Made by a program: the position numbers and the translations under genes | The notes under the pieces: generated by a model | Told to the model about the DNA's origin: nothing | Databases searched by the model: none | What the model saw: only the letters and a program-made list of their open reading frames with translations | Source: Escherichia phage JLBYU22 | Direction: 5' to 3' (one strand) | DNA: 64,000 nt | Sequence record: OK272484.1 | Shown here: positions 3,990 to 20,584 of the stretch, piece after piece | How the letters are laid out: every line of letters begins with the position of its first letter | How positions within the stretch are numbered: position 1 is the stretch's first letter

Positions 3990-4414
3990 TGCTTCTGATC
4001 CCTGAAACTCATGAATTAGTTCTCGAGAATGTCGAAGCACTTATTCCTGAAGCACAGGGTCGCTTTGACGAATTGTCTTCTGCTTTAAATAAAGACGATA
4101 TAAATACAATTGTCGAGAATATGCTTGATGATGAAACTGATTTAGCGGTTGCATTAGCTTCTATTAATGAAAATATGCCGTTAAATGAATTTATCGTTAA
4201 ACATGTTTCTGCCCGTGGTGAAATTACTCGCACTAAAGATCGCAAAACCCGCGAACGTAATGCATTTCAAACTACCGGGTTGTCTAAAGCAAAACGTAGA
4301 CAAATTGCTCGTAAAGCTACCAAAACGAAGATTGCCAATCCAGCAGGTCAATCTCGTGCTCAGCGTAAGCGTAAAAAAGCTCTTAAACGCCGTAAAGCAT
4401 TAGGATTAAGCTAA
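3989..4414 (+). CDS. 68: Prohead core protein gp68
   Basis: 141 aa as in T4; synteny. Confidence 0.85.
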
Positions 4415-5052
4415 TGAATGAACCCCAATTACTAATTGAAACTTGGGGTCAACCTGGCGAAATTATTGATGGCGTACCAATGCTTGAATCTCATGATGGA
4501 AAAGACTTAGGTTTAAAACCTGGTTTATACATCGAAGGAATATTCATGCAAGCGGAAGTCGTCAATAGAAATAAACGTCTTTATCCAAAACGTATATTAG
4601 AAAAAGCGGTAAAAGACTATATTAATGAGCAAGTTTTAACTAAACAAGCTCTCGGAGAATTAAATCATCCTCCACGCGCTAATGTTGACCCGATGCAAGC
4701 CGCTATCATTATAGAAGATATGTGGTGGAAAGGAAATGACGTATACGGACGAGCTCGTGTTATTGAAGGTGACCATGGTCCTGGAGATAAATTAGCAGCT
4801 AATATTCGTGCCGGATGGATTCCAGGAGTTTCTTCTCGTGGATTAGGTTCATTGACTGACACAAATAAAGGTTATCGTATCGTAAACGAAGGATTCAAAT
4901 TAACTGTAGGTGTTGATGCAGTATGGGGTCCAAGTGCTCCAGATGCATGGGTAACTCCTAAGGAAATTACCGAATCACAGACGGCGGAAGCCGATACAAG
5001 TGCCGATGACGCCTATATGGCTCTCGCAGAGGCCATGAAAAAAGCGTTATAA
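4414..5052 (+). CDS. 21: Prohead core protease gp21
   Basis: 212 aa as in T4 gp21; synteny. Confidence 0.95.
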   Translation: MNEPQLLIETWGQPGEIIDGVPMLESHDGKDLGLKPGLYIEGIFMQAEVVNRNKRLYPKRILEKAVKDYINEQVLTKQALGELNHPPRANVDPMQAAIIIEDMWWKGNDVYGRARVIEGDHGPGDKLAANIRAGWIPGVSSRGLGSLTDTNKGYRIVNEGFKLTVGVDAVWGPSAPDAWVTPKEITESQTAEADTSADDAYMALAEAMKKAL

Positions 5053-5055
5053 ATA
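5048..5055 (+). promoter_or_regulatory. Late promoter box TATAAATA overlapping gene 21 stop, upstream of gene 22
   Basis: Exact TATAAATA; AGGA RBS and ATG 5083 follow. Confidence 0.7.
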
Positions 5056-5082
5056 TTATTATCTAAACAACAGGACTACAAA

Positions 5083-5892
5083 ATGCTTAAAGAACAACTG
5101 ATTGCCGAAGCGCAGAAAATTGATGCTTCCGTTGCTCTTGATAGTATTTTCGAATCAGTTAATATTTCTCCGGAAGCAAAAGAAACTTTCGGCACTGTAT
5201 TCGAAGCTACCGTCAAGCAGCACGCCGTTAAATTAGCTGAATCTCATATCGCTAAAATTGCTGAAAAAGCAGAAGAAGAAGTAGAAAAAAATAAAGAAGA
5301 AGCAGAAGAAAAAGCTGAGAAGAAAATCGCTGAGCAAGCTTCTAAATTCCTTGACCATCTTGCAAAAGAATGGCTCACTGAAAATAAATTAGCAGTAGAT
5401 AAAGGCATCAAAGCCGAACTGTTTGAATCCATGCTTGGTGGATTGAAAGAGCTCTTCGTTGAACACAACGTTGTTGTTCCAGAAGAATCAGTTGATGTTG
5501 TAGCTGAAATGGAAGAAGAACTGCAAGAACATAAAGAAGAATCAGCTCGTCTGTTCGAAGAACTCAATAAGCGTGACGCATATATCAATTATGTGCAGCG
5601 TGAAGTGGCATTGAGCGAAAGTACTAAAGATCTGACTGAGTCTCAAAAAGAAAAAGTCTCTGCTCTGGTCGAAGGTATGGATTATTCAGATGCATTCTCA
5701 AGTAAATTGAGTGCAATCGTAGAAATGGTGAAGAAATCTAATAAAGATGAAAGCACTATTACTGAGAGTATAAATACTCCTGATACTGAAGCAGCCGGAC
5801 TGAATTTCGTCACTGAAGCTGTAGAAGATAAATCTGCACAAGGTGCAGAAGATATTGTAAGTGTATATGCGAAAGTCGCATCTCGTTTCTAA
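5083..5892 (+). CDS. 22: Prohead core scaffold protein gp22
   Basis: 269 aa, Glu/Lys-rich coiled-coil-like composition; synteny. Confidence 0.95.
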   Translation: MLKEQLIAEAQKIDASVALDSIFESVNISPEAKETFGTVFEATVKQHAVKLAESHIAKIAEKAEEEVEKNKEEAEEKAEKKIAEQASKFLDHLAKEWLTENKLAVDKGIKAELFESMLGGLKELFVEHNVVVPEESVDVVAEMEEELQEHKEESARLFEELNKRDAYINYVQREVALSESTKDLTESQKEKVSALVEGMDYSDAFSSKLSAIVEMVKKSNKDESTITESINTPDTEAAGLNFVTEAVEDKSAQGAEDIVSVYAKVASRF

Positions 5893-5910
5893 TTTTAAAG
5901 GTTAACACAA

Positions 5911-7476
5911 ATGACTATCAAAACTAAAGCTGAACTTTTGAACAAATGGAAGCCATTACTGGAAGGTGAAGGTTTACCGGAAATTGCTAATAGCAAACAA
6001 GCGATTATCGCTAAAATCTTTGAAAACCAGGAAAAAGATTTCCAGACAGCTCCGGAATATAAAGACGAAAAAATTGCTCAGGCATTCGGTTCTTTCTTAA
6101 CAGAAGCTGAAATCGGTGGTGACCACGGTTATAATGCTACTAACATTGCTGCAGGTCAGACTTCTGGCGCGGTAACTCAGATTGGCCCAGCTGTTATGGG
6201 TATGGTACGTCGTGCTATTCCTAACCTGATTGCTTTCGATATTTGTGGTGTTCAGCCGATGAACAGCCCGACTGGCCAGGTATTCGCACTGCGCGCAGTA
6301 TACGGTAAAGACCCAATCGCTTCCGATGCTAAAGAAGCATTCCACCCAATGTATGGTCCAGATGCAATGTTCTCTGGTCAGGGTGCTGCTAAGAAATTCC
6401 CAGCTCTGGCTGCTAGCACACAAACTACAGTAGGTGATATCTATACTCACTTCTTCCAGGAAACTGGTACTGTATATCTGCAAGCTTCTGTTCAAGTAAC
6501 AATCGATGCTGGCGCGACTGATGCTGCTAAATTAGATGCTGAAATTAAGAAACAAATGGAAGCTGGTGCACTGGTAGAAATCGCTGAAGGTATGGCTACT
6601 TCTATCGCTGAACTCCAGGAAGGTTTCAATGGTTCTACCGATAACCCATGGAATGAAATGGGCTTCCGTATCGATAAACAAGTTATCGAAGCTAAATCTC
6701 GTCAGCTGAAAGCTGCTTACTCTATCGAATTAGCACAAGACCTCCGTGCTGTTCACGGTATGGATGCTGATGCTGAACTGTCTGGCATTCTGGCTACAGA
6801 AATTATGCTGGAAATCAACCGTGAAGTTGTTGATTGGATTAACTACTCAGCTCAGGTTGGTAAATCTGGTATGACCCTGACTCCGGGTTCTAAAGCTGGT
6901 GTATTTGACTTCCAGGACCCAATCGATATTCGTGGTGCTCGCTGGGCGGGTGAATCCTTTAAAGCTCTGTTGTTCCAGATTGACAAAGAAGCAGTTGAAA
7001 TTGCTCGTCAGACCGGTCGTGGTGAAGGTAACTTCATTATCGCTTCCCGTAACGTAGTTAACGTTCTGGCTTCAGTTGATACTGGCATTTCTTATGCTGC
7101 GCAAGGTCTGGCTACCGGCTTTAACACTGATGCTACCAAGTCAGTATTTGCTGGTGTTCTGGGTGGTAAATACCGTGTATATATCGACCAGTATGCTAAA
7201 CAGGATTATTTCACTGTAGGTTATAAAGGTCCGAACGAAATGGATGCTGGTATTTACTACGCTCCATATGTAGCTCTAACTCCGCTGCGTGGTTCCGATC
7301 CGAAGAACTTCCAACCAGTAATGGGATTCAAAACTCGTTACGGTATCGGTATCAACCCATTTGCAGAATCCGCTGCTCAGGCTCCGGCTTCTCGCATCCA
7401 GAGCGGTATGCCTTCTATTCTGAATAGCCTTGGTAAAAACGCTTACTTCCGCCGTGTATATGTTAAAGGTATCTAA
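5911..7476 (+). CDS. 23: Major capsid protein gp23
   Basis: 521 aa as in T4 gp23; contains LTE|A motif matching the prohead protease cleavage consensus near residue 65. Confidence 0.98.
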   Translation: MTIKTKAELLNKWKPLLEGEGLPEIANSKQAIIAKIFENQEKDFQTAPEYKDEKIAQAFGSFLTEAEIGGDHGYNATNIAAGQTSGAVTQIGPAVMGMVRRAIPNLIAFDICGVQPMNSPTGQVFALRAVYGKDPIASDAKEAFHPMYGPDAMFSGQGAAKKFPALAASTQTTVGDIYTHFFQETGTVYLQASVQVTIDAGATDAAKLDAEIKKQMEAGALVEIAEGMATSIAELQEGFNGSTDNPWNEMGFRIDKQVIEAKSRQLKAAYSIELAQDLRAVHGMDADAELSGILATEIMLEINREVVDWINYSAQVGKSGMTLTPGSKAGVFDFQDPIDIRGARWAGESFKALLFQIDKEAVEIARQTGRGEGNFIIASRNVVNVLASVDTGISYAAQGLATGFNTDATKSVFAGVLGGKYRVYIDQYAKQDYFTVGYKGPNEMDAGIYYAPYVALTPLRGSDPKNFQPVMGFKTRYGIGINPFAESAAQAPASRIQSGMPSILNSLGKNAYFRRVYVKGI

Positions 7477-7491
7477 TCTTTGACGATTTAA

Positions 7492-7507
7492 GGGACCTTC
7501 GGGTCCC
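7492..7507 (+). terminator. Rho-independent terminator after gene 23 (GGGACC-TTCG-GGTCCC followed by T-run)
   Basis: Perfect 6-bp GC stem with UUCG loop and downstream TTTAGTTGTTTTT. Confidence 0.8.
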
Positions 7508-7524
7508 TTTAGTTGTTTTTATGG

Positions 7525-7532
7525 TATAAATA
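7525..7532 (+). promoter_or_regulatory. Late promoter box TATAAATA upstream of gene 24
   Basis: Exact TATAAATA ~28 nt upstream of ATG 7560. Confidence 0.7.
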
Positions 7533-7559
7533 AATCATATAAACCAAAAGGAAAGCGCA

Positions 7560-8843
7560 ATGGCTAAAATCAACGAACTTCTGCGCGAATCAACCACAAC
7601 GAATAGCAACTCAATCGGTCGCCCAAATCTCGTTGCTTTGACTCGCGCTACCACTAAATTAATATATTCTGACATTGTAGCAACGCAAAGAACTAATCAA
7701 CCTGTTGCTGCTTTTTATGGTATCAAATACCTTAACCCTGATAACGAATTTACATTTAAAACTGGTGCTACTTACGCCGGCGAAGCTGGATACGTAGACC
7801 GAGAACAAATCACAGAATTAACAGAAGAGTCTAAATTAACTCTCAATAAAGGCGATTTATTCAAATATAATAATATCGTTTATAAAGTATTAGAAAATAC
7901 ACCATTTGCTGATATTGAAGAAAGTGATTTAGAATTAGCTCTTCAGATTGCAATTGTTCTTTTAAAGGTTCGTCTATTTTCTGATGCTGCAGTAACAAGC
8001 AAATTTGAAAGCTCTGATAGTGAAATTGCGGATGCTAGATTCCAGATTAATAAATGGCAAACCGCAGTTAAATCTCGTAAACTTAAAACTGGCATTACAG
8101 TTGAATTAGCACAAGATTTAGAAGCAAATGGATTCGATGCTCCTAATTTCTTGGAAGATTTGCTTGCAACCGAAATGGCAGATGAAATCAATAAAGATAT
8201 TCTGCAGTCTTTGATTACAGTATCAAAACGCTATAAAGTCACAGGAATTACTGATACTGGATTCATTGATTTGAGTTATGCATCTGCACCTGAAGCTGGT
8301 CGTTCATTATACCGAATGGTGTGTGAAATGGTTTCGCATATCCAAAAAGAATCAACTTATACTGCAACGTTCTGTGTTGCTTCAGCTCGTGCCGCTGCGA
8401 TTCTTGCTGCATCAGGTTGGTTAAAACATAAACCAGAAGATGACAAATATCTTTCACAAAATGCCTACGGGTTCTTAGCTAATGGTTTACCGCTTTATTG
8501 CGATACCAACAGCCCATTAGATTATGTAATCGTTGGCGTAGTAGAAAATATCGGTGAAAAAGAAATTGTTGGATCAATTTTCTATGCTCCATATACAGAA
8601 GGTCTTGACTTAGATGACCCTGAACATGTAGGTGCATTTAAAGTTGTAGTTGATCCAGAAAGTTTGCAGCCATCTATCGGTTTATTGGTTAGATATGCTT
8701 TATCTGCAAATCCTTATACTGTAGCAAAAGATGAAAAAGAAGCAAGAATAATTGATGGTGGAGACATGGATAAAATGGCGGGTCGTTCAGATTTGTCTGT
8801 TTTATTAGGTGTTAAGCTACCAAAAATTATCGTTGATGAATAA
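7560..8843 (+). CDS. 24: Head vertex protein gp24
   Basis: 427 aa as in T4 gp24; synteny. Confidence 0.95.
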   Translation: MAKINELLRESTTTNSNSIGRPNLVALTRATTKLIYSDIVATQRTNQPVAAFYGIKYLNPDNEFTFKTGATYAGEAGYVDREQITELTEESKLTLNKGDLFKYNNIVYKVLENTPFADIEESDLELALQIAIVLLKVRLFSDAAVTSKFESSDSEIADARFQINKWQTAVKSRKLKTGITVELAQDLEANGFDAPNFLEDLLATEMADEINKDILQSLITVSKRYKVTGITDTGFIDLSYASAPEAGRSLYRMVCEMVSHIQKESTYTATFCVASARAAAILAASGWLKHKPEDDKYLSQNAYGFLANGLPLYCDTNSPLDYVIVGVVENIGEKEIVGSIFYAPYTEGLDLDDPEHVGAFKVVVDPESLQPSIGLLVRYALSANPYTVAKDEKEARIIDGGDMDKMAGRSDLSVLLGVKLPKIIVDE

Positions 8844-8849
8844 AACAAA

Positions 8850-8865
8850 GGGACCGAAAGGTCCC
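8850..8865. terminator. Bidirectional terminator hairpin GGGACC-GAAA-GGTCCC between convergent genes 24 and rnlB
   Basis: Perfect palindromic stem flanked by A-run upstream and T-run downstream. Confidence 0.8.
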
Positions 8866-8871
8866 TTTTAT

Positions 8872-9876
8872 TTAACTTACCAATTCAATCCAAGCCGGAC
8901 GAAGTACATCTTGTACCATTTTAACTAATTCCTTCTTAATCAAGGAAGGATTATCCGCTTGAGTTAAAGTAATACCTTCACGAGAAGTTTCTTCCAAAAT
9001 ATCTTGAACAGTTAGTCCCATCACCTTTCCAAAATCTTTTGGACCAATTTCGCCAATTTTAGAAATAACGTTATTTACCCGATTCAGTGTAACGTAGCAA
9101 GCTAAAATTCCCAGCAATTTGTTATCAGCTTCTGACAGTTCAACTTTAACTTTAATAGGCTTATCAGACTTTTTCTTTTCGCTAAATTTAGAGTTCTTGC
9201 ATTTGATAGCTACGCGATTACCATTAGGCATCCAAGAAGGATAACAAGGTTTCAATACATATCCTTCAGCAGTAAATACTTCGCCTTTTGCTTCAGCATT
9301 CCAAACGCATTTATTTGCATCAACTAATCCAGCGTGGTCTACCGTAAAATTATAATCCTGGACGACAGAATCTAAATCATTTGGCAATTTAATAAGTTCT
9401 TCAAATTTACCACGACCCAAAAGTGGAGCCATTTTAAATTTGAATGTATTACAGAATGATTCCATCATATAATCATCGACATAAGTCACATCACCACTTT
9501 CTGTAGTAACAATAATGTCAAATACATAAAAATCTTTATCACCATAATCGACATTCTTCTGAATGCCAGGTCCAGCGAATTCGCCGAAGACTTGATAAGA
9601 TACAACTGCCGAAGTTTCCATAATATCTTGTACTGCTTTAATGGAATCAGCGTAATTCTTTAGAATAATTTCATACCCAAAGAAATCTTCAGCAGGAAGA
9701 ATCGGTCCAGTACGTTTAGCACAAGTTGCTTTATCGCGTTCAATAATCAGTGAGAAATTTGTGCCATGAATCTTTTCACGAGCTACCCATTCGCCGCCAG
9801 TCAATCCTAAACTGTAAAGTTTTTCAATGAATTTAGAATTGTAATGATTTTCAAGACTGCTATACTTTTTAAACAT
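8872..9876 (-). CDS. rnlB: RNA ligase 2 (Rnl2)
   Basis: 334 aa; KIHGTN nucleotidyltransferase motif I; position after gene 24 as in T4. Confidence 0.9.
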
Positions 9877-9885
9877 AATTAATCC

Positions 9886-10164
9886 TCAAAATGTAATTTC
9901 TAACCAATCACCATCACGTTGATCACTATTGACTTTAAAGCTAAATCCTTCTTTTCTCAGCCAATCACCAATTTCTTCAGTAATCAATTTATCGCGAGCA
10001 GTACAATAATAACTAAAATATGTTTTACCTTGTTCAGCTGCTTTATTAGCAAGTTCCGAAAAATCTTTAATAAAACACTCTAGCTTAAACTGTTTACTTT
10101 TAAGTGCTTTTTCGCGTAATTGATTAGCAAAAGATTCATTTTCATAAAGATCATACTGTTCCAT
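9886..10164 (-). CDS. Small hypothetical protein (position of T4 24.2)
   Basis: 92-aa ORF; synteny only. Confidence 0.6.
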   Translation of the reverse strand: MEQYDLYENESFANQLREKALKSKQFKLECFIKDFSELANKAAEQGKTYFSYYCTARDKLITEEIGDWLRKEGFSFKVNSDQRDGDWLEITF

Positions 10165-10366
10165 TTTTCACCTTTTTATTAATATGTCTTTTTCTATAGA
10201 CAACTTTTTCTCGAGTTTCAAATTTATTCTTAGCAGTCATAGCTCGAGCCCATAATACAGCCACTTCTTTTGCCTGTAAGTTCAATTCACGAGCAATTTC
10301 AATGAATGACTTTCCAGACTCATGAAGAGTAAACACCACAACTTCAGTTCTCATAATCAATCTCAT
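10151..10366 (-). CDS. Small hypothetical protein (position of T4 24.3)
   Basis: 71-aa ORF; synteny only. Confidence 0.55.
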   Translation of the reverse strand: MRLIMRTEVVVFTLHESGKSFIEIARELNLQAKEVAVLWARAMTAKNKFETREKVVYRKRHINKKVKNGTV

Positions 10367-10435
10367 GTTATCGAGTTGGTGCCATTATATACATCATTTT
10401 CTGAGTGTGTTTTGTGTGCTTTCAAAATGAAGAAA

Positions 10436-10449
10436 GGGGCCGAAGCCCC
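10436..10449 (-). terminator. Terminator hairpin GGGGC-CGAA-GCCCC downstream of hoc
   Basis: GC stem with tetraloop; U-rich tract follows on the minus strand. Confidence 0.7.
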
Positions 10450-10455
10450 TTATGA

Positions 10456-11874
10456 TTATGGATAGGTATAGATTATACCAGTTTCTAAAGCAGTTTTGTG
10501 AATGATGTATCCATTACGTGATTCTTGGACATCAACTTCTGGATAGTCTTTCATCATCTTCTGAAGAGTGTAACGATGCAGGTAGTATTTACTATCTGGA
10601 TCTTCAGTTTTCCAATCTTTACCTTCTTCGGTCATTTTTTGGATTTCATCCATAACCCACCAACCACACCAGATGTAAGCTGAAGTACGATGTGGAAGAG
10701 GATGAACATAAGGTAATTCACCTTCTGGCTCTGGAGCAACTTTATCAGTTACCTGAACTTGACCTTCCGCCGTAATAGTTTTGCTATCATAATCAGCAGC
10801 AGTAACAGTTGCAGTAACTTCAATAGTTTGACTTCCAATAGATGAGGTATCAACGGTATATACATTAGTTGACCCTTCTACAGGAGAAGAATCTTTCTTC
10901 CATGAATACGCAATTTGCGCTTCTTCTGGAGCATCAGTGACATTAGCAGTAAATGTAGCCGAAGCATCTTGTTGAACGTTAATAGAAGGAGGAGTCAATG
11001 TAACCTGTGGATTCATTGTCTTCTTATTAACTGTTAATGATACTTCATTCGAAGTAACTTCCTTTTCATTGTAATTTTCAGCAGTTACTTGGGCTACGCA
11101 TTTAATTCTTTTTACTCCACTTGTAGTTGGAGTATAGTTAAATGTAGAGTTAGTTTCTCCACCAACTTGTGAATCATCTACATACCATTTATATGTAGCA
11201 GACGCTCCAACAGGTTGAGAAACCAAGGCAGCAGTAAATTGAACTGGGGTTCCAATTACTCCAGCTGAAGGACTATCAGGAGTTACTGCTAAGGTAGTTG
11301 TCTGCGTCTTTTTATTAACAGTCAGTGACACTTCATTGGAAGTAACTTCCTTTGTATCATAATCTGTCGCGGTTACTTGAGCTACACACTTAATTGTTTT
11401 AACTCCGCTTGTGTCAGGAGTGTAATTGAATGTAGCGTCAGTTGCTTCGTCTACAGGAGAACCGTCAACGTGCCATTGATACGTAGCGTTTGCACCTGAT
11501 GGCTGTGAAGCTAAGGCAGCGGTAAATTCAACAGCTGTTCCAATCACTCCAGCAGCAGGACTATCAGGAGTTACTGCCAAGGTAGTTGTCTGTGTCTTAT
11601 TTTGAACTGTGATAGTTGTACTAATTTCAGCTGTTTCAGCTTCAGAATCAGGAACTGGATTTGTTGCAACTACCTTAATAGTCTTTTGTCCAGCAGGACC
11701 TTTTAGTACATAACTAAAAGTTGCAGACGTTTCTTCCTGCGGTGCATCATCAACAGTCCAAGCATAGGTAATAGGTCCATCTCCAGTTTGACCACTGGGT
11801 GTAGCAGTAAACTGCTGAGTCTGATCTATAACTCCAGTAGGTGTTTTAGGAGTTATATCAACTGTAAAAGTCAT
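10456..11874 (-). CDS. hoc: Hoc outer capsid decoration protein, 472 aa with four Ig-like modules plus capsid-binding C-terminus
   Basis: N- and C-terminal regions match T4 Hoc as I recall it; two adjacent ~96-aa modules are ~80 percent identical to each other. Confidence 0.9.
   Translation of the reverse strand: MTFTVDITPKTPTGVIDQTQQFTATPSGQTGDGPITYAWTVDDAPQEETSATFSYVLKGPAGQKTIKVVATNPVPDSEAETAEISTTITVQNKTQTTTLAVTPDSPAAGVIGTAVEFTAALASQPSGANATYQWHVDGSPVDEATDATFNYTPDTSGVKTIKCVAQVTATDYDTKEVTSNEVSLTVNKKTQTTTLAVTPDSPSAGVIGTPVQFTAALVSQPVGASATYKWYVDDSQVGGETNSTFNYTPTTSGVKRIKCVAQVTAENYNEKEVTSNEVSLTVNKKTMNPQVTLTPPSINVQQDASATFTANVTDAPEEAQIAYSWKKDSSPVEGSTNVYTVDTSSIGSQTIEVTATVTAADYDSKTITAEGQVQVTDKVAPEPEGELPYVHPLPHRTSAYIWCGWWVMDEIQKMTEEGKDWKTEDPDSKYYLHRYTLQKMMKDYPEVDVQESRNGYIIHKTALETGIIYTYP
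11014..11589 (-). repeat. Tandem in-frame duplication (2 x 288 bp) encoding two Ig-like modules inside hoc
   Basis: Protein residues 96-191 and 192-287 align colinearly (TTTLAVTPDSP...SLTVNKKT). Confidence 0.85.
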
Positions 11875-11883
11875 AAGTTATCC

Positions 11884-12564
11884 TTATTTTAATGTTACGA
11901 AAGAAGAATTGCGTGTTTCACGAATTAAAACTGATCCGTCACGGTTAATGTAATAAATTAAGCTAAATAAAGTTTGGTGTGCTGACGCATGCTCAAAACT
12001 AGTTGGGTGAGATTTCCAATCCGGAGTTTCAGCAATCCACTGGTAAATCCACCAAGGAACGGTGCAGAATCCTGGATTTTTTCCAATCAGCTGAAGATTC
12101 GGACTAAAGTTTTCCGGAAGAGTAAATACAGACAGCTTTTCAGATTCAATAATCTCAGCTACAGCCTGCTCGAATTTTTCTTCAACAAAAGGAGTATCTT
12201 CAATCAAAACATCGGTATTTTCAGGAATTTTATCCGTTTCTACTACTTCAATTTTAATGTCAGATTTAACCGGAGAATCAATCAGAAGTGCTGCCTCTGG
12301 ATTGACTTCTTCATCGTCATATTTTAACCCCTCTGCAGCATCAGCAGCATCAATTAAGTCTTTAATAGATAACCCATCAGTCTCTGGCATAGGTTCACTA
12401 GCGAGCTTCTGGAGGGCTTCTTCAATATCAACAACGATATTATCAAAAGATTTATTCTTTTTGACCTTTATACCAAACTGCTCAGCATATTCAGCTAATT
12501 TAGCTTTAGCTTCTTTGTTATCATCAAGAGCCTTCAGCTCTGCAATATAATCTTTATCTATCAT
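11884..12564 (-). CDS. inh: Inh, inhibitor of prohead protease gp21
   Basis: 226 aa as in T4 Inh; adjacent to hoc. Confidence 0.8.
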   Translation of the reverse strand: MIDKDYIAELKALDDNKEAKAKLAEYAEQFGIKVKKNKSFDNIVVDIEEALQKLASEPMPETDGLSIKDLIDAADAAEGLKYDDEEVNPEAALLIDSPVKSDIKIEVVETDKIPENTDVLIEDTPFVEEKFEQAVAEIIESEKLSVFTLPENFSPNLQLIGKNPGFCTVPWWIYQWIAETPDWKSHPTSFEHASAHQTLFSLIYYINRDGSVLIRETRNSSFVTLK

Positions 12565-12577
12565 AATATTTCCTCAG

Positions 12578-12585
12578 TATAAATA
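12578..12585 (+). promoter_or_regulatory. Late promoter box TATAAATA upstream of uvsW
   Basis: Exact TATAAATA 30 nt upstream of ATG 12615. Confidence 0.65.
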
Positions 12586-12614
12586 TAGATATATTTATTA
12601 CATGGTATTTAGAC

Positions 12615-14126
12615 ATGACTGACATTAAAGTACATTTTTATGATTTTAGTCACGTGAGAATTGATTGTGAAGAAAGTACATTTCATGAACTCCGTGATTT
12701 CTTTAGCTTTGAAGCTGATGGGTATCGTTTTAATCCGAAGTACAGATATGGCCACTGGGATGGACGAATCCGTCTTTTAGATTATAATCGCCTTCTTCCA
12801 TTCGGCTTGGTCGGGCAAATTAAAAAGTTCTGTGATAACTTTGGCTATAAAGCCTGGATTGACCCGCAAATTAACGAAAAAGAAGAATTATCAAGAAAAG
12901 ATTTTGATGAATGGCTTTCTAAATTAGAAATCTATTCAGGAAATAAAAGAATTGAACCGCACTGGTATCAAAAAGATGCAGTGTTCGAAGGATTAGTTAA
13001 TCGTCGTAGAATTCTTAATCTTCCAACATCTGCAGGTAAATCTTTAATTCAAGCTTTGCTTGCTCGGTATTATTTGGAAAATTATGAAGGTAAAATTCTT
13101 ATCATTGTTCCAACAACTGCTCTGACAACTCAGATGGCTGATGACTTTGTTGACTATCGTTTATTCAGTCATGCAATGATAAAGAAAATCGGCGGTGGAG
13201 CATCAAAAGATGATAAATATAAAAATGATGCACCAGTCGTTGTTGGTACATGGCAAACTGTAGTAAAACAGCCGAAAGAATGGTTCTCACAGTTTGGAAT
13301 GATGATGAATGATGAATGCCATCTTGCTACAGGAAAAAGTATTTCATCTATCATATCAGGTTTAAATAACTGCATGTTTAAATTTGGTCTATCAGGTTCA
13401 TTACGTGACGGCAAAGCCAATATCATGCAGTATGTTGGAATGTTTGGTGAAATATTTAAGCCAGTAACGACCTCTAAATTAATGGAAGATGGACAAGTAA
13501 CTGAGTTAAAAATTAATAGTATTTTTCTTCGCTATCCCGATGAGTTCACTACTAAATTAAAGGGAAAAACTTACCAAGAAGAAATAAAAATTATTACTGG
13601 GCTCAGTAAAAGAAATAAATGGATCGCTAAATTAGCTATTAAGCTTGCACAAAAAGATGAAAACGCTTTTGTCATGTTTAAACACGTATCGCACGGTAAA
13701 GCTATTTTCGATTTAATTAAAAATGAATACGATAAAGTTTATTACGTATCAGGGGAAGTTGATACTGAAACCCGCAATATAATGAAAACCTTAGCTGAAA
13801 ATGGTAAAGGAATAATTATAGTAGCGAGTTATGGTGTATTTTCTACTGGTATTTCAGTTAAAAATCTGCATCATGTTGTTTTAGCGCACGGCGTTAAATC
13901 AAAAATCATTGTATTACAAACAATCGGTCGTGTATTACGTAAGCATGGTTCTAAGACAATAGCAACAGTCTGGGACCTCATCGATGATTGTGGTGTTAAG
14001 CCAAAATCTGCTAATACGAAAAAGAAATACGTTCATTTGAACTATCTTTTAAAACACGGCATTGATCGTATTCAGCGCTACGCAGATGAAAAATTTAATT
14101 ACGTAATGAAAACAGTTAATTTATAA
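12615..14126 (+). CDS. uvsW: UvsW DNA helicase (SF2)
   Basis: 503 aa; Walker A PTSAGKS and DECH box. Confidence 0.95.
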   Translation: MTDIKVHFYDFSHVRIDCEESTFHELRDFFSFEADGYRFNPKYRYGHWDGRIRLLDYNRLLPFGLVGQIKKFCDNFGYKAWIDPQINEKEELSRKDFDEWLSKLEIYSGNKRIEPHWYQKDAVFEGLVNRRRILNLPTSAGKSLIQALLARYYLENYEGKILIIVPTTALTTQMADDFVDYRLFSHAMIKKIGGGASKDDKYKNDAPVVVGTWQTVVKQPKEWFSQFGMMMNDECHLATGKSISSIISGLNNCMFKFGLSGSLRDGKANIMQYVGMFGEIFKPVTTSKLMEDGQVTELKINSIFLRYPDEFTTKLKGKTYQEEIKIITGLSKRNKWIAKLAIKLAQKDENAFVMFKHVSHGKAIFDLIKNEYDKVYYVSGEVDTETRNIMKTLAENGKGIIIVASYGVFSTGISVKNLHHVVLAHGVKSKIIVLQTIGRVLRKHGSKTIATVWDLIDDCGVKPKSANTKKKYVHLNYLLKHGIDRIQRYADEKFNYVMKTVNL

Positions 14127-14151
14127 GGGCTTCGGCCCTTTGGAGAAAAAG

Positions 14152-14382
14152 ATGTTACTAGGATTTAAACAATTTCTTTATGAAGCTTCTATTGATGAAT
14201 TTATGGGTAAAATTGCCTCTTGTCAAACATTAGAAGGTTTAGAAGAACTTGAAGCTTATTACAAGAAAAGAGTTAAAGAAACTGAATTAAAAGATACTGA
14301 TGACATCTCTGTGAGAGATGCTTTGGCAGGAAAAAGAGCTGAATTAGAAGATTCAGACGATGAAGTAGAAGAAAGCTTTTAA
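14152..14382 (+). CDS. uvsW.1: UvsW.1-like small acidic protein
   Basis: Start moved to ATG 14152 (track used TTG 14140); GGAG RBS; 76 aa. Confidence 0.7.
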   Translation: MLLGFKQFLYEASIDEFMGKIASCQTLEGLEELEAYYKKRVKETELKDTDDISVRDALAGKRAELEDSDDEVEESF

Positions 14383-14391
14383 ATTAAAAAA

Positions 14392-14414
14392 GGCCCAACC
14401 AAAAAGGAAGGGCC
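14392..14414 (-). terminator. Hairpin GGCCC...GGGCC followed by T6 on the minus strand; terminator of the uvsY transcription unit
   Basis: Read directly; the T-run lies only on the minus-strand side. Confidence 0.55.
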
Positions 14415-14437
14415 AAAACTATAGACTAAAGGTCACA

Positions 14438-14605
14438 CTATAGCAAAAGTTGTGTTTCATTTAATTGTTCTTCCGAACTTTCTGAAACTGGTAGTTCTTT
14501 AATGTAATTATAGCAAGGCCCAGGATGTACAGGACCTTTGTCTGTTTCAACAACCAATGCAGAATCGATTGGAGTTTTACAGACAACACAAATCTTATCT
14601 GACAT
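14438..14605 (-). CDS. Small Cys-containing protein (position of T4 uvsY.-2); not in the supplied ORF track (<60 aa)
   Basis: 55-codon ORF found by hand; GAGGAG RBS 6 nt upstream of ATG; CxxC...C pattern. Confidence 0.6.
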   Translation of the reverse strand: MSDKICVVCKTPIDSALVVETDKGPVHPGPCYNYIKELPVSESSEEQLNETQLLL

Positions 14606-14630
14606 GATTGTCTCCTCTGAATTATATATC

Positions 14631-14638
14631 TATTTATA
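14631..14638 (-). promoter_or_regulatory. Late promoter box TATAAATA (minus strand) upstream of the 55-codon ORF
   Basis: Plus strand reads TATTTATA. Confidence 0.45.
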
Positions 14639-14858
14639 CAACTCTCATATGCATATCAATGCCCATATCTTTAGAATAAAAATATTCATCAAGATATCCG
14701 GCAAATTTTCCTTTAATATAAAGGACATCTTCACCGCACGGGTGGTCGGCCAGGATACGAATATCCTGACGCTTAAGATTATGCTTTTTCATTAAGAATT
14801 GAATTTCCGTTTCAAATTCTTCTTCATAATTAAAAGCATCATCAATGCTATATCTCAT
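14634..14858 (-). CDS. Small hypothetical protein (position of T4 uvsY.-1)
   Basis: 74 aa; 1-nt overlap with uvsY stop. Confidence 0.65.
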   Translation of the reverse strand: MRYSIDDAFNYEEEFETEIQFLMKKHNLKRQDIRILADHPCGEDVLYIKGKFAGYLDEYFYSKDMGIDMHMRVV

Positions 14859-15271
14859 TATTTTCCAGCCTCAAATGCCCGCATGTCTTGAATATGCTTA
14901 ATAGCAAATCCACGTGATTTGATAGCATCAAGAGCTCCGCTACAGAAATCTAATAAAATTCCCCAATATTGTAATGAAGTATCAACCTTTAAAACATCCT
15001 TATCAGCTGATAGAACTGTCTTCATTTCTGATTTCTCGTAACGATCCATACTAAATTCATCACCATCTCCTCGTCCCGAGTAGTAGTCTAATTTAGCTTT
15101 AAGAGCAACTTTTTTCTGTGCATCAATTCTAAGCATTTCCTTTTTAATACTTGAATGCTTATTAAGCCATTTACTATATAACATCACATTATTAGCTGCT
15201 TCATACTGTAATTTAGTCGAATCTATAAACACATCTTTCTTCAATTCTTCTTGAAGATCTTCTAATCTCAT
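14858..15271 (-). CDS. uvsY: UvsY recombination mediator
   Basis: 137 aa as in T4 UvsY. Confidence 0.95.
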   Translation of the reverse strand: MRLEDLQEELKKDVFIDSTKLQYEAANNVMLYSKWLNKHSSIKKEMLRIDAQKKVALKAKLDYYSGRGDGDEFSMDRYEKSEMKTVLSADKDVLKVDTSLQYWGILLDFCSGALDAIKSRGFAIKHIQDMRAFEAGK

Positions 15272-15337
15272 ATTGTTCTCTATTCAATTGTTATTGGATG
15301 GACTTAGATTCATTATACCACGTTTATACGTGAAGCA

Positions 15338-15736
15338 TTATACTCTATTACTGGAAGCCAGTTGTAGTTTTATCTGCTCGATATCATCAGGGTTATCGAT
15401 GACTGAAAAGCGTATTTCTACTATCAAAGTATAATCATCATAAACCGGTATTACATTAACTGCTAATTTATCAATACGTGGCTCATAGTTTCTTACTGCG
15501 CTTTCGATATTACGCTCAACCGTGTCAGCAGTAAGAGGAGTCATATTCTCAAAAAGTTGGTCAGATAAATCACATCCAAATTCAGGGTCAAACGGTCTTG
15601 AACCTTTTCTTGTTGTAATAATTCCTAAAAGACTATTTTTAATTGACCTTAATCCAAGTGATCTTGAAACGTCTTTGTTCCAATCCATTTTCATCTCTGG
15701 GTCAATATCAGAATAAAGCTTATTAATATTTGCCAT
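15338..15736 (-). CDS. 25: Baseplate wedge protein gp25
   Basis: 132 aa as in T4 gp25; synteny. Confidence 0.9.
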   Translation of the reverse strand: MANINKLYSDIDPEMKMDWNKDVSRSLGLRSIKNSLLGIITTRKGSRPFDPEFGCDLSDQLFENMTPLTADTVERNIESAVRNYEPRIDKLAVNVIPVYDDYTLIVEIRFSVIDNPDDIEQIKLQLASSNRV

Positions 15737-16362
15737 TACAATAGCTCAAAGAATTCTTTGAGTCCTCTTATTACATGAGCGTGAGTTTTTCCACACTCTG
15801 GACACTTAATTGGAACAGCCAAATAAACGGTAGGCTTTAAAAGCATATCTTTTATAGCTACAATATCTGACTCTGTGATGATAGAATATAAATCTTCCAG
15901 TTCTTTTTCATTTAAGTCTTCAACTGGAATGCTTTCCCCGTTAGCATGAATCGTTTCTATACATGATACTATCATGTGGGCTATATTTTTATCATCAAAA
16001 ATTTTAGGGTAATGGAATTTAATTTTAATGTCACCCAGTGTATACCAGAGGTCTTCTGGTGCATCTATTTGTGTATGTAATAGATTTATATGGGTTGGTA
16101 TTTCAGTTCCACAGGTGCACTTCCAGGAGTTTTCGTGATTAACTTCTCCAAGAGAATGTGCCCATAAATGAATCAATAGTAGTTCTGATTCTTGGCGGTT
16201 TAAATCTTTTGCATTTGTGCATTCTTTGATTAGCTTTTTAACGATCTCTTCTACTGAACCGTTCTTTTTAGCAGTAATAAGTTCTAGATATTCTTTAAGA
16301 GTAAATGCGCGACAGTTGATTATTTTAGAACCAACTCTCACATCAAATTTGTATTCATACAT
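15736..16362 (-). CDS. 26: Baseplate hub protein gp26
   Basis: 208 aa; synteny. Confidence 0.85.
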
Positions 16363-16383
16363 ATTTAGCTCCTTTATTTATCA

Positions 16384-16395
16384 TATTTATAAATA
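16384..16395. promoter_or_regulatory. Palindromic TATTTATAAATA: overlapping divergent late promoter boxes for gene 26 (minus) and gene 51 (plus)
   Basis: TATAAATA reads on both strands within 12 bp. Confidence 0.65.
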
Positions 16396-16412
16396 GAATA
16401 AAAGGAGCATCT

Positions 16413-17162
16413 ATGGCAAACATTATTCGTTGTAAATTACCAGATGGTGTTCATCGTTTTAAACCATTTACGGTAGAAGATTATCGAGATTTTTTGTTAG
16501 TTCGAAACGATATAGAACATCGGTCACCACAAGAACAAAAAGAAATAATTGCTGATTTAATTGCTGATTATTTTGGAGACTATCCGAAGACTTGGCAACC
16601 ATTTATATTTTTGCAGGTATTTGTAGGGTCAATAGGTAAAACTAAAGTACCGGTCACATTTGTATGTCCAAAATGTAAAAAAGAAAAGACAGTTCCATTT
16701 GAAATATATCAAAAAGAATTAAAGGAACCTGTTTTTGATGTAGCTAATGTTAAAATTAAATTAAAGTTTCCTTCTGAGTTTTATGAAAATAAAGCAAAGA
16801 TGATTACTGAAAATATTCATTCTGTTCAAGTAGATGAAATATGGTATGATTGGAAGGAAATTAGCGAGTCCAGTCAAATAGAACTAGTTGACGCCATCGA
16901 GATAGAAACATTAGAAAAAATTCTCGATGCAATGAATCCTATTAATTTAACTCTACATATGTCATGCTGTAATAAGTACATTAAAAAATACACTGATATA
17001 GTAGACGTGTTTAAGCTATTAGTTAACCCAGATGAGATATTTACTTTTTATCAAATTAATCACACACTCGTAAAAAGTAATTATAGCTTAAATTCAATAA
17101 TGAAAATGATTCCTGCCGAGCGCGGATTCGTATTAAAACTGATTGAGAAGGATAAACAATAA
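16413..17162 (+). CDS. 51: Baseplate hub assembly protein gp51
   Basis: 249 aa; synteny. Confidence 0.85.
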
Positions 17163-18337
17163 TGAGTATGTTGCAACGCCCCGGATATCCAAATCTCAGC
17201 GTTAAATTATTTGATAGCTACGACGCTTGGAGTAATAATAGATTTGTTGAATTAGCTGCTACTATTACTACATTAACTATGCGGGATTCTCTTTATGGCC
17301 GAAATGAAGGAATGCTGCAGTTTTATGATTCTAAAAACATCCATACAAAAATGGATGGAAATGAAATAATTCAGATTTCTGTAGCTAATGCAAATGATAT
17401 TAATAATGTTAAAACACGAATTTATGGATGTAAGCATTTTTCTGTGTCAGTAGATTCAAAAGGTGATAACATCATTGCTATTGAATTGGGAACTATTCAT
17501 TCTATAGAAAATCTTAAATTTGGTAGACCATTTTTCCCTGATGCAGGTGAATCTATAAAAGAAATGCTTGGCGTCATTTATCAGGATCGCACATTATTAA
17601 CTCCAGCAATAAATGCTATAAATGCTTATGTTCCTGATATTCCGTGGACTAGCACATTTGAAAACTATTTGTCATATGTAAGAGAAGTTGCTCTAGCTGT
17701 AGGAAGCGACAAATTTGTATTTGTATGGCAAGACATCATGGGAGTTAACATGATGGACTATGATATGATGATAAATCAAGAACCATATCCAATGATTGTC
17801 GGCGAGCCATCTTTAATAGGTCAATTCATCCAAGAATTAAAATATCCATTAGCATATGATTTCGTTTGGTTGACTAAATCGAATCCTCACAAACGTGACC
17901 CAATGAAAAATGCTACTATCTATGCTCATTCATTTTTAGATTCTTCACTGCCAATGATTACTACAGGAAAGGGTGAAAACTCTATTGTAGTGTCAAGGTC
18001 AGGTGCTTATTCTGAAATGACTTATAGGAATGGCTATGAAGAAGCTATTCGTCTTCAAACTATGGCGCAATACGATGGCTATGCTAAATGTTCTACTGTC
18101 GGTAATTTTAACTTGACTCCTGGCGTTAAAATTATTTTTAATGATAGTAAAAACCAATTTAAAACAGAATTTTACGTTGATGAAGTCATCCATGAATTAT
18201 CCAATAATAATTCAGTAACTCATCTATATATGTTCACTAATGCAACGAAACTGGAAACAATAGACCCAGTTAAGGTTAAAAATGAATTTAAATCTGATAC
18301 TACCACTGAAGAAAGTAGTTCTTCCAATAAGCAATAA
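17162..18337 (+). CDS. 27: Baseplate hub subunit gp27
   Basis: 391 aa as in T4 gp27. Confidence 0.9.
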
Positions 18338-18815
18338 AGAAGTTTCTATTCCTAAAATGGGTCTTAAACACTATAACATTTTAAAAGATGTTAAAGGTCC
18401 TGATGAAAATTTAAAACTTCTTATTGATTCTATTTGTCCGAATTTATCACCGGCAGAAGTTGATTTCGTTTCTATTCATCTATTGGAATTTAATGGAAAG
18501 ATTAAATCTCGTAAAGAAATAGATGGTTATACTTATGACATTAATGATGTTTATGTATGCCAAAGATTGGAATTTCAATACCAAGGAAATACATTTTATT
18601 TTAGACCTCCTGGAAAATTTGAACAATTTTTAACGGTGAGCGATATGTTATCTAAATGCTTGCTTAAGGTCAATGATGAAGTTAAAGAAATTAATTTTCT
18701 TGAGATGCCAGCATTCGTTTTAAAATGGGCAAATGATATTTTTACAACTTTAGCAATTCCTGGCCCTAATGGTCCAATAACCGGAATTGGCAATATTATT
18801 GGATTATTTGAATGA
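18282..18815 (+). CDS. 28: Baseplate hub distal subunit gp28
   Basis: 177 aa; overlaps the 3' end of gene 27 in another frame. Confidence 0.85.
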
Positions 18816-20584
18816 AAAAGCCACAAGAAATGCAAACGATGCGTAGAAAAGTTATTTCAGATAATAAACCAACACAGGAAGCGGCTAAATCCGCTTCCAA
18901 CACTTTATCTGGACTTAACGATATATCTACGAAATTGGATGATGCTCAAGCTGCCTCTGAATTAATAGCTCAAACTGTCGAAGAAAAATCGAATGAAATA
19001 ATTGGAGCAATTGATAACGTAGAAAGCGCAGTGAGTGATACTACTGCCGGTTCTGAGTTAATTGCTGAAACTGTCGAAATTGGCAACAATATTAATAAAG
19101 AAATTGGTGAATCACTCGGAAGCAAATTAGATAAATTAACGAGTTTATTAGAACAAAAAATTCAGACAGCTGGAATTCAACAAACAGGAACCAGTTTAGC
19201 CACGGTTGAAAGCGCTATTCCTGTTAAAGTTGTTGAGGATGATACAGCTGAATCTGTGGGTCCTTTATTACCGGCCCCTGAAGCAGTTAATAATGATCCT
19301 GACGCTGATTTTTTCCCTACCCCTCAGCCAGTTGAACCCAAACAAGAATCGCCAGAAGAAAAACAGAAAAAAGAAGCATTTAACTTAAAATTATCTCAAG
19401 CTTTAGATAAATTAACGAAGACTGTTGATTTCGGATTTAAAAAATCCATTTCAATTACTGATAAAATATCAAGCATGTTATTTAAGTACACCATCAGTGC
19501 TGCTATTGAAGCTGCTAAAATGACTGCAATGATATTGGCTGTTGTTGTTGGAATAGACCTGTTGATGGTTCATTTTAAATACTGGTCAGATAAATTTTCA
19601 AAAGCCTGGGATTTATTTAATACTGACTTTACTAAATTCTCTAGCGAAACCGGAACATGGGGTCCTTTATTACAGAGCATCTTTGATTCTATTGATAAAA
19701 TTAAACAACTTTGGGAAGCGGGAGATTGGGGTGGATTGACAGCAGCTATTGTTGAAGGACTCGGAAGTGTTCTTTTTAATTTAGGTGAACTTATTCAATT
19801 AGGTATGGCTAAATTATCTGCAGCAATTCTTCGAGTCATTCCTGGTATGAAGGATACTGCTGATGAAGTAGAAGGAAGAGCATTAGAAAATTTCCAAAAT
19901 TCTACTGGAGCATCTCTCAATAAAGAAGACCAGGAAAAAGTTGCAAATTATCAAGATAAACGAATGAACGGAGACCTTGGTCCGATAGCAAAAGGATTAG
20001 ATAAAATTGCTAATTGGAAAACTCGTGCATCTAATTGGATTCGTGGTGTAGATAATAAAGAAGCACTGACTACCGACGAAGAACGTGCAGCAGAAGAAGA
20101 AAAATTAAAGCAACTTTCACCTGAAGAAAGAAAAAATGCTTTAATGAAGGCTAATGAAGCCCGTGCCGCAATGATTCGCTTTGAAAAATATGCTGATTCA
20201 GCTGATATGAGTAAAGACTCAACGGTTAAATCTGTTGAATCTGCCTATGAAGACCTTAAAAAACGGATGGATGACCCGGATTTAAATAATTCACCGGCAG
20301 TTAAAAAAGAACTTGCTGCTAGATTTTCTAAAATTGATGCTACTTATCAAGAGCTCAAGAAAAATCAGCCTAATGCCAAACCTGAAACTTCTGCTAAATC
20401 GCCAGAAGCAAAACAAGTCCAGGTAATAGAAAAGAACAAAGCACAGCAAGCTCCTGTTCAACAAGCATCTCCTTCAATCAACAATACTAATAATGTTATT
20501 AAGAAAAATACTGTCGTTCATAATATGACACCTGTCACAAGCACAACTGCTCCTGGTGTATTTGATGCGACTGGGGTTAATTAA
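18812..20584 (+). CDS. 29: Tail tape-measure / baseplate hub protein gp29
   Basis: 590 aa as in T4 gp29. Confidence 0.9.
   Translation: MKKPQEMQTMRRKVISDNKPTQEAAKSASNTLSGLNDISTKLDDAQAASELIAQTVEEKSNEIIGAIDNVESAVSDTTAGSELIAETVEIGNNINKEIGESLGSKLDKLTSLLEQKIQTAGIQQTGTSLATVESAIPVKVVEDDTAESVGPLLPAPEAVNNDPDADFFPTPQPVEPKQESPEEKQKKEAFNLKLSQALDKLTKTVDFGFKKSISITDKISSMLFKYTISAAIEAAKMTAMILAVVVGIDLLMVHFKYWSDKFSKAWDLFNTDFTKFSSETGTWGPLLQSIFDSIDKIKQLWEAGDWGGLTAAIVEGLGSVLFNLGELIQLGMAKLSAAILRVIPGMKDTADEVEGRALENFQNSTGASLNKEDQEKVANYQDKRMNGDLGPIAKGLDKIANWKTRASNWIRGVDNKEALTTDEERAAEEEKLKQLSPEERKNALMKANEARAAMIRFEKYADSADMSKDSTVKSVESAYEDLKKRMDDPDLNNSPAVKKELAARFSKIDATYQELKKNQPNAKPETSAKSPEAKQVQVIEKNKAQQAPVQQASPSINNTNNVIKKNTVVHNMTPVTSTTAPGVFDATGVN

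Follow-up and report, generated by a model that had tools for sequence, protein, structure and literature searches.

Tandem domain-2 Ig-like modules in the Hoc capsid protein of Escherichia phage JLBYU22 and module-number variation among Tequatrovirus Hocs

The hoc locus and the domain layout of its product

We analyzed a 64,000-nt stretch of DNA from Escherichia phage JLBYU22 (OK272484.1; hereafter, the window), in which a minus-strand gene, hoc, encodes the head outer capsid, or decoration, protein (Table 1). Hoc is the T4 capsid fibre that is used in phage display and in vaccine platforms, and it has been implicated in phage adherence to mucus. The product of the JLBYU22 gene matches the PHROG 1149 'Hoc-like head decoration' family (E 4e-138) and, in a phmmer comparison, matches the T4 Hoc chain 5vf3_Z in the PDB to the last residue (E 2.5e-222). 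The gene is flanked by inh on one side and by 24.3, 24.2, and rnlB on the other, and comparison of the ORFs with T4 and with the PinkRuby annotation shows that this order is identical in T4. No plus-strand ORF of at least 60 aa overlaps hoc, an Rfam scan of the interval returned rliB as its sole match (28.9 bits vs. a gathering score of 40; that is, a sub-threshold, chance match), and promoter-like sites in the interval show no excess over the shuffled expectation. The hairpin that directly follows the hoc stop codon is, judging by its match to consensus, likely an intrinsic terminator separating hoc from 24.3.

The neighbouring genes show two further differences from T4. The gap between inh and uvsW is just 50 bp (12565-12614); the GIY-YIG homing endonuclease gene segE, which occupies this gap in T4 and in one other contig, is absent in the JLBYU22 window. 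The gene 24.3 homologue encodes 71 aa, as compared to the 56 aa annotated in T4; the corresponding PinkRuby ORF, at 216 nt, is the same size as in JLBYU22.

The closest relative of the locus is Escherichia phage TH09 (MT446387, a Tequatrovirus), a record flagged UNVERIFIED and unannotated, with 99.8% identity over 16 kb and 100% identity over hoc. The genomes next in rank after TH09 have 97.4-97.6% identity over 16 kb (positions 4000-20000 of the window) and only 94-96% identity over hoc, indicating that hoc is more variable than its surroundings.

Table 1. Positions of hoc, of the domains of its product, and of neighbouring features in the window
Feature	Coordinates	Strand	Evidence
Gene 24.3 homologue	10151-10366	minus	71-aa ORF
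Terminator-like GC hairpin AAGGGGCTTCGGCCCCTT with T-run	10434-10451	minus	directly past hoc stop codon; consensus scan only
hoc CDS, head outer capsid/decoration protein	10456-11874	minus	1419-nt ORF, 472 aa plus stop
C-terminal capsid-binding domain, residues 379-472	10459-10740	minus	95.7% nt identity to T4, dN 0.009; PHROG 21694 over residues 408-472, E 1e-41
Last Ig-like domain, residues 284-378, corresponding to domain 3 of T4 Hoc	10741-11025	minus	T4 alignment; AF2 beta-sandwich; Pfam Ig_3/I-set at residues 289-373
Repeat copy 2, residues 188-283, beta-type domain-2 module, corresponding to domain 2 of T4 Hoc	11026-11313	minus	89% nt identity to T4 domain 2
Repeat copy 1, residues 92-187, alpha-type domain-2 module, extra relative to T4	11314-11601	minus	78% nt identity to T4 domain 2
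Ig-like domain 1 (D1), residues 1-91	11602-11874	minus	AF2 beta-sandwich, pLDDT ~90; aligns with T4 Hoc residues 1-91
inh	11884-12564	minus	
uvsW	12615-14126	plus	

The first-pass annotation of this DNA had proposed that hoc encodes an additional Ig-like domain relative to T4. Two lines of evidence agree with this proposal. First, Pfam PKD, Ig_2, and Ig_3 models match both repeat copies, as well as the last Ig domain, supporting the assignment of the repeated module as Ig-like. Second, an AlphaFold2 (AF2) model, built on a shallow alignment of 25 Hocs from close relatives, contains four beta-sandwich units, with pLDDT ~90 over residues 1-378. In Foldseek searches with this model, the top-ranking PDB entries are ectodomains with four Ig domains (Dscam1 Ig1-4, Sidekick, and ICAM-5 D1-D4), and the N-terminal Hoc structure from phage RB49 (3SHS) is also recovered (E 8.5e-10, with 16% identity in the structural alignment). 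The C-terminal domain, which is homologous to the capsid anchor of T4 Hoc (T4 residues ~283-376), is invariant in the 25 aligned Hocs and has low pLDDT, as expected for an alignment this shallow. The product is thus predicted to be a Hoc in which four Ig-like beads (D1, copy 1, copy 2, and the last Ig) stand on a conserved C-terminal domain. The motif ...TV-(Q/N)-(N/K)-K-T, followed by a domain start (QTTTLAVTP...), recurs at the junctions between D1 and copy 1, between copy 1 and copy 2, and between copy 2 and the last Ig domain; hoc therefore has in-frame homology at every domain boundary.

The tandem repeat and the divergence of its two copies

According to the first-pass annotation, Hoc of this phage has 472 residues, as compared to 376 in T4, and the difference reflects an in-frame tandem duplication of a module of ~96 aa. 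The ORF call and the T4 Hoc sequence from NC_000866 bear out both lengths, and alignment of the two proteins requires one single gap, of 96 residues. The presence of two adjacent modules encoded by consecutive 288-bp repeats is confirmed by Tandem Repeats Finder (11018-11598; period 288, 2.0 copies, 77% matches, score 696), by a separate repeat search (11018-11305 and 11306-11593; 76% identical), and by exact mapping of residues 96-191 to positions 11302-11589 and of residues 192-287 to positions 11014-11301. The natural domain phase, 92-187/188-283, lies four residues upstream of the phase 96-191/192-287, a shift that is immaterial for the tandem repeat.

The similarity of the two units, taken as residues 96-191 (R1) and 192-287 (R2), amounts to 77% in protein (74 of 96 residues) and 75.7% in DNA; the high similarity claimed for the modules stands, and the figure of about 80 percent that had been attached to it was slightly generous. 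The in-register identity is 76.4%, as compared to a background over the whole window, on both strands, with a mean of 25.8%, a standard deviation of 3.1%, and a maximum of 41.7% (z = 16.6), and the background maximum itself stems from the remaining Hoc Ig domains. Pairwise comparisons among D1, R1, R2, and the last Ig domain yield 77% for R1 vs. R2 and 30-42% for all other pairings. We conclude that the repeat units are head-to-tail, in-frame, and equal in length, and that they are closer to each other than to the other, paralogous Ig domains of Hoc.

The two copies differ at 70 nucleotides, 41 of which are at third codon positions. Analysis by the method of Nei and Gojobori gives dS of 1.06 and dN of 0.14 (dN/dS 0.13), and, as judged from these substitutions, both copies are kept functional by purifying selection. 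Amino-acid differences between the copies favour predicted loops, where 15 of 42 positions differ, over predicted strands, where 7 of 54 do (Fisher p = 0.013). Synonymous divergence changes along the module, with pS of 0.30 in the first 24 codons, 0.70-0.80 (saturation) in the core, and 0.52 in the last 24 codons, and the low value in the first quarter is of the kind expected if the module starts had been homogenised by later exchange, as they appear to have been. For orthologous parts of Hoc, dS between JLBYU22 and T4 is only 0.2-0.4. Because the dS of ~1.06 between the copies is well above this range, we infer that the copies split well before the sampled Tequatroviruses diverged.

The single domain-2 module of T4 Hoc has 89% nucleotide identity to copy 2 and 78% nucleotide identity to copy 1. 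Because copy 2 is the match to T4 domain 2, copy 1 is the module that T4 does not have. This match, together with the old and shared nature of the duplication, further implies that T4 may carry a shortened form, rather than JLBYU22 a lengthened one.

Module number and module order among Tequatrovirus Hocs

A megablast search with hoc matched 682 phage records, 60 of which, evenly spaced, served as the copy-number sample. In 22 of the 60 sampled Tequatrovirus records hoc is 1419-1425 bp, and 2 more, in which domain 1 is divergent, apparently carry both modules; in 28 of the 60 hoc is 1131-1137 bp, and in one (PNJ-9) it is 852 bp. By this sample, about four in ten sequenced relatives (~22-24 of 60) would have the same arrangement as JLBYU22. 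In hundreds of GenBank records, the annotation of the 472-aa form is either Hoc or PKD-domain protein. In four records (NC_054907 (T6), MZ501066 (FriedrichMiescher), ON506924 (SCS4), and MZ234018), hoc is annotated in two parts ('x2', or 'Hoc part 1 / part 2'), which suggests frameshifted or split alleles in some isolates, in keeping with a Hoc that is dispensable.

At the protein level, the best 120 protein clusters, together with the Hocs of JLBYU22 and T4, group by length at 376 aa (78), 472 aa (30), and 568/570 aa (8), corresponding to one, two, and three modules. The copy number in relatives thus differs by whole units. These results agree with the earlier suggestion that the repeat is a substrate for expansion and contraction, inasmuch as relatives with 1, 2, or 3 modules differ in steps of exactly 96 aa.

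We cut 169 modules from the proteins of the Hoc clusters and sorted them by their central loop into four types: alpha (S-P-V-x-E-A-T), beta (S-Q-V-G-G-E-T-N), gamma (S-L-V-D-G-E-T-T-T), and delta (S-Q-I-G/S-E-A-T). Each type occurs as the only module of one-module Hocs (beta in 40, alpha in 27, gamma in 8, and delta in 6). Two-module Hocs are alpha-beta (23), alpha-gamma (3), alpha-delta (2), beta-gamma (1), an alpha-alpha hybrid (1), and alpha plus an unrelated module (1), and three-module Hocs are alpha-beta-gamma (4), alpha-beta-delta (2), and alpha-delta-gamma (2). These counts are of architectures and not of independent events, since the representatives of the clusters in the census are related by phylogeny and are mosaic. 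Every one of the 39 multi-module arrays, except the alpha-alpha hybrid, follows the order alpha-(beta/delta)-(gamma/delta), in full or as a subset; the alpha type leads in 38 of the 39, and no reversed module order is found among them.

The first and second modules of the 39 multi-module Hocs have 55-84% aa identity (median 78%). No near-identical neighbouring copies are found among these arrays (maximum 84% aa identity), all modules being of the old types, and none of the 39 shows the freshly duplicated copies that ongoing expansion would leave. Alpha and beta modules cluster across phages by type, and not by phage; sub-segments reassort between module types, and the region is mosaic. Two comparisons illustrate differences between alleles. 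The single module of a 376-aa Hoc (OP030805) has 97% nucleotide identity to JLBYU22 copy 2, including a stretch of ~220 nt without differences. A 568-aa allele compared to a 472-aa allele is identical at 273 of 273 nt in D1, 278 of 288 nt in module 1, and 285 of 288 nt in module 2; past this point, the longer allele has a complete gamma module that the shorter one lacks, and similarity is lower in the Ig domain downstream (269 of 285 nt).

One 472-aa Hoc, from a metagenomic assembly, has a second module that shares just 55% identity with the first module and falls outside the alpha, beta, gamma, and delta types. The slot is here filled by an unrelated Ig module, whose presence suggests import from a more remote Hoc. 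With the alpha module as the tblastn query, high identity is found only for Tequatrovirus-type modules, followed by a drop to at most 56%. An exhaustive representative search with one module returned mostly very large proteins, each with 4-39 generic Ig/PKD repeats, at ~30-39% identity and is uninformative on Hoc ancestry.

Origin, function, and relation to known Hocs

The reading that we prefer, with a probability of roughly 0.85 for the explanation as a whole, including the four-bead product, is that the JLBYU22 repeat is one state of an old module array in which copy number changes by unequal homologous recombination. The two adjacent domain-2 Ig-like modules are anciently diverged copies, and the array is polymorphic across the genus, with one, two, or three modules in a conserved order in Tequatrovirus Hocs. 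According to this reading, whole modules would have been gained, lost, and reshuffled through out-of-register homologous recombination at similar module ends and inter-domain linkers, probably in the course of co-infection. The T4-type phage life cycle is highly recombinogenic, and an account based on out-of-register recombination fits this property. Recombination between the two copies present in JLBYU22 itself should be inefficient, because their longest exact in-register matches are only 21, 15, and 14 nt.

The best-surviving alternative, which we consider improbable, is that alpha, beta, gamma, and delta originated in different phages, as divergent alleles of a domain 2 present in single copy, and were joined into arrays by out-of-register recombination in co-infection, rather than arising by duplication and later divergence within one genome. 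The occurrence of each of the four types as the sole module of 376-aa Hocs speaks for this alternative, as does the free reassortment of module sub-segments, and the metagenomic Hoc with a 55%-identical second module shows that the slot is open to unrelated Ig modules. However, repeated independent joining events should yield both orders, whereas the 39 arrays conserve order, with alpha first and gamma last; and the present data fit a single old stacking event and an old duplication alike.

A recent, lineage-specific duplication of a T4-like domain 2 in this phage or its immediate ancestor, followed by drift, would most simply account for a 2 x 288-nt tandem repeat as long as one genome is considered, but is very unlikely when the genus is considered: the synonymous divergence between the copies, saturated in the module core, far exceeds that between orthologues within the genus, the alpha-beta layout is found also in more than a third of the sampled records and in 23 protein clusters, and alpha and beta modules group by type across phages. 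We therefore reject a recent duplication on the basis of dS and population distribution. An assembly or annotation artefact (a mis-assembled repeat, or an ORF that is not one expressed protein) can be dismissed even though the identical TH09 record is flagged, since assembly expansion is not to be expected of copies that share just 76% identity, the reading frame runs uninterrupted through both copies, each of which is under purifying selection, and hoc of the same length occurs in hundreds of independent isolates and metagenomic contigs.

For the preferred reading, an old array that changes by whole modules, the predicted consequence for the virion is a capsid fibre that would be longer than that of T4 by about one Ig domain, or roughly 4 nm. 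The T4 Hoc fibre, comprising three Ig domains and an anchor, is ~180 Å long, and T4 Hoc, one copy of which occupies the centre of every gp23 hexamer of the mature capsid, is dispensable for growth (PMC10385173). Hoc Ig domains are reported to bind mucin glycans in T4, PNJ-6, and PNJ-9 (PMC9271167, PMC11853027), and Fu et al. report that domain 2 of PNJ-9 Hoc (N92-N187) binds MUC2 fucose via S183, L184, and T185 (PMC11853027). The corresponding SLT motif is present in both JLBYU22 copies, at S183-T185 and at S279-T281; the fibre would thus display a second domain-2 surface, including this motif. The first-pass annotation had raised the possibility of a longer fibre with changed adhesion properties, and both a longer fibre and altered adhesion would be plausible.

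A further hypothesis, to which we give only limited credence, is that module number (1-3) and fixed order (alpha, beta/delta, gamma/delta) represent a long-maintained, selected polymorphism in which fibre positions are functionally specialised and copy number tunes the reach and valency of adhesion to mucus or cell-surface glycans. If this were true, co-circulating phages would occupy different adhesion niches. For practical purposes, the fact that natural Tequatrovirus Hocs contain 3, 4, or 5 Ig domains, assembled from exchangeable modules, is useful for picking display scaffolds and helps to interpret differences in mucus adherence between therapeutic phages. The JLBYU22 window simply carries the common longer hoc allele and leaves current understanding unchallenged.

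Comparison with known Hocs places the JLBYU22 protein within a described range. T4 Hoc (376 aa; PDB 5VF3, 8T1X, and others) shares with it the gene position and collinear domain 1, last Ig domain, and capsid-binding domain, but has one domain-2 module and three Ig domains, whereas JLBYU22 Hoc has alpha followed by beta, four Ig domains, and 96 additional residues. The 568/570-aa Hocs, as in Escherichia phages UGKSEcP1 and UGKSEcP2, likewise have tandem modules, the first two being alpha and beta (or delta), but differ in having a third module (gamma or delta) and five Ig domains. The 'variant Hoc' of PNJ-9 (283 aa; PMC11853027) is also of Tequatrovirus type, is likewise set apart from T4 Hoc by one entire Ig domain, and has as its domain 2 (N92-N187, with the SLT motif at 183-185) the module that JLBYU22 Hoc carries twice; however, PNJ-9 Hoc has lost the last Ig domain, whereas JLBYU22 Hoc has an additional copy of domain 2. 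More distantly, RB49 Hoc (3SHS, the N-terminal three Ig domains) and the Hoc of Serratia phage Muldoon (1174 aa, 10 Ig domains; PMC10385173) have the same plan of a linear string of Ig domains on a capsid-binding domain, but are distant in sequence, and their arrays are not drawn from the alpha/beta/gamma module set. Across Hoc homologues, the number of Ig domains ranges from 1 to 10 (PMC10385173). In our literature search, Hoc structure, domain loss, and multi-Ig Hocs were found to be described, but the 472-aa tandem-module form and the ordered alpha/beta/gamma system were not explicitly described. Variable Ig number in Hoc is already published. We conclude that the 472-aa form belongs to the ordinary variation of a well-known protein, and that the ordered module system is a modest descriptive gap rather than a novel class of system.
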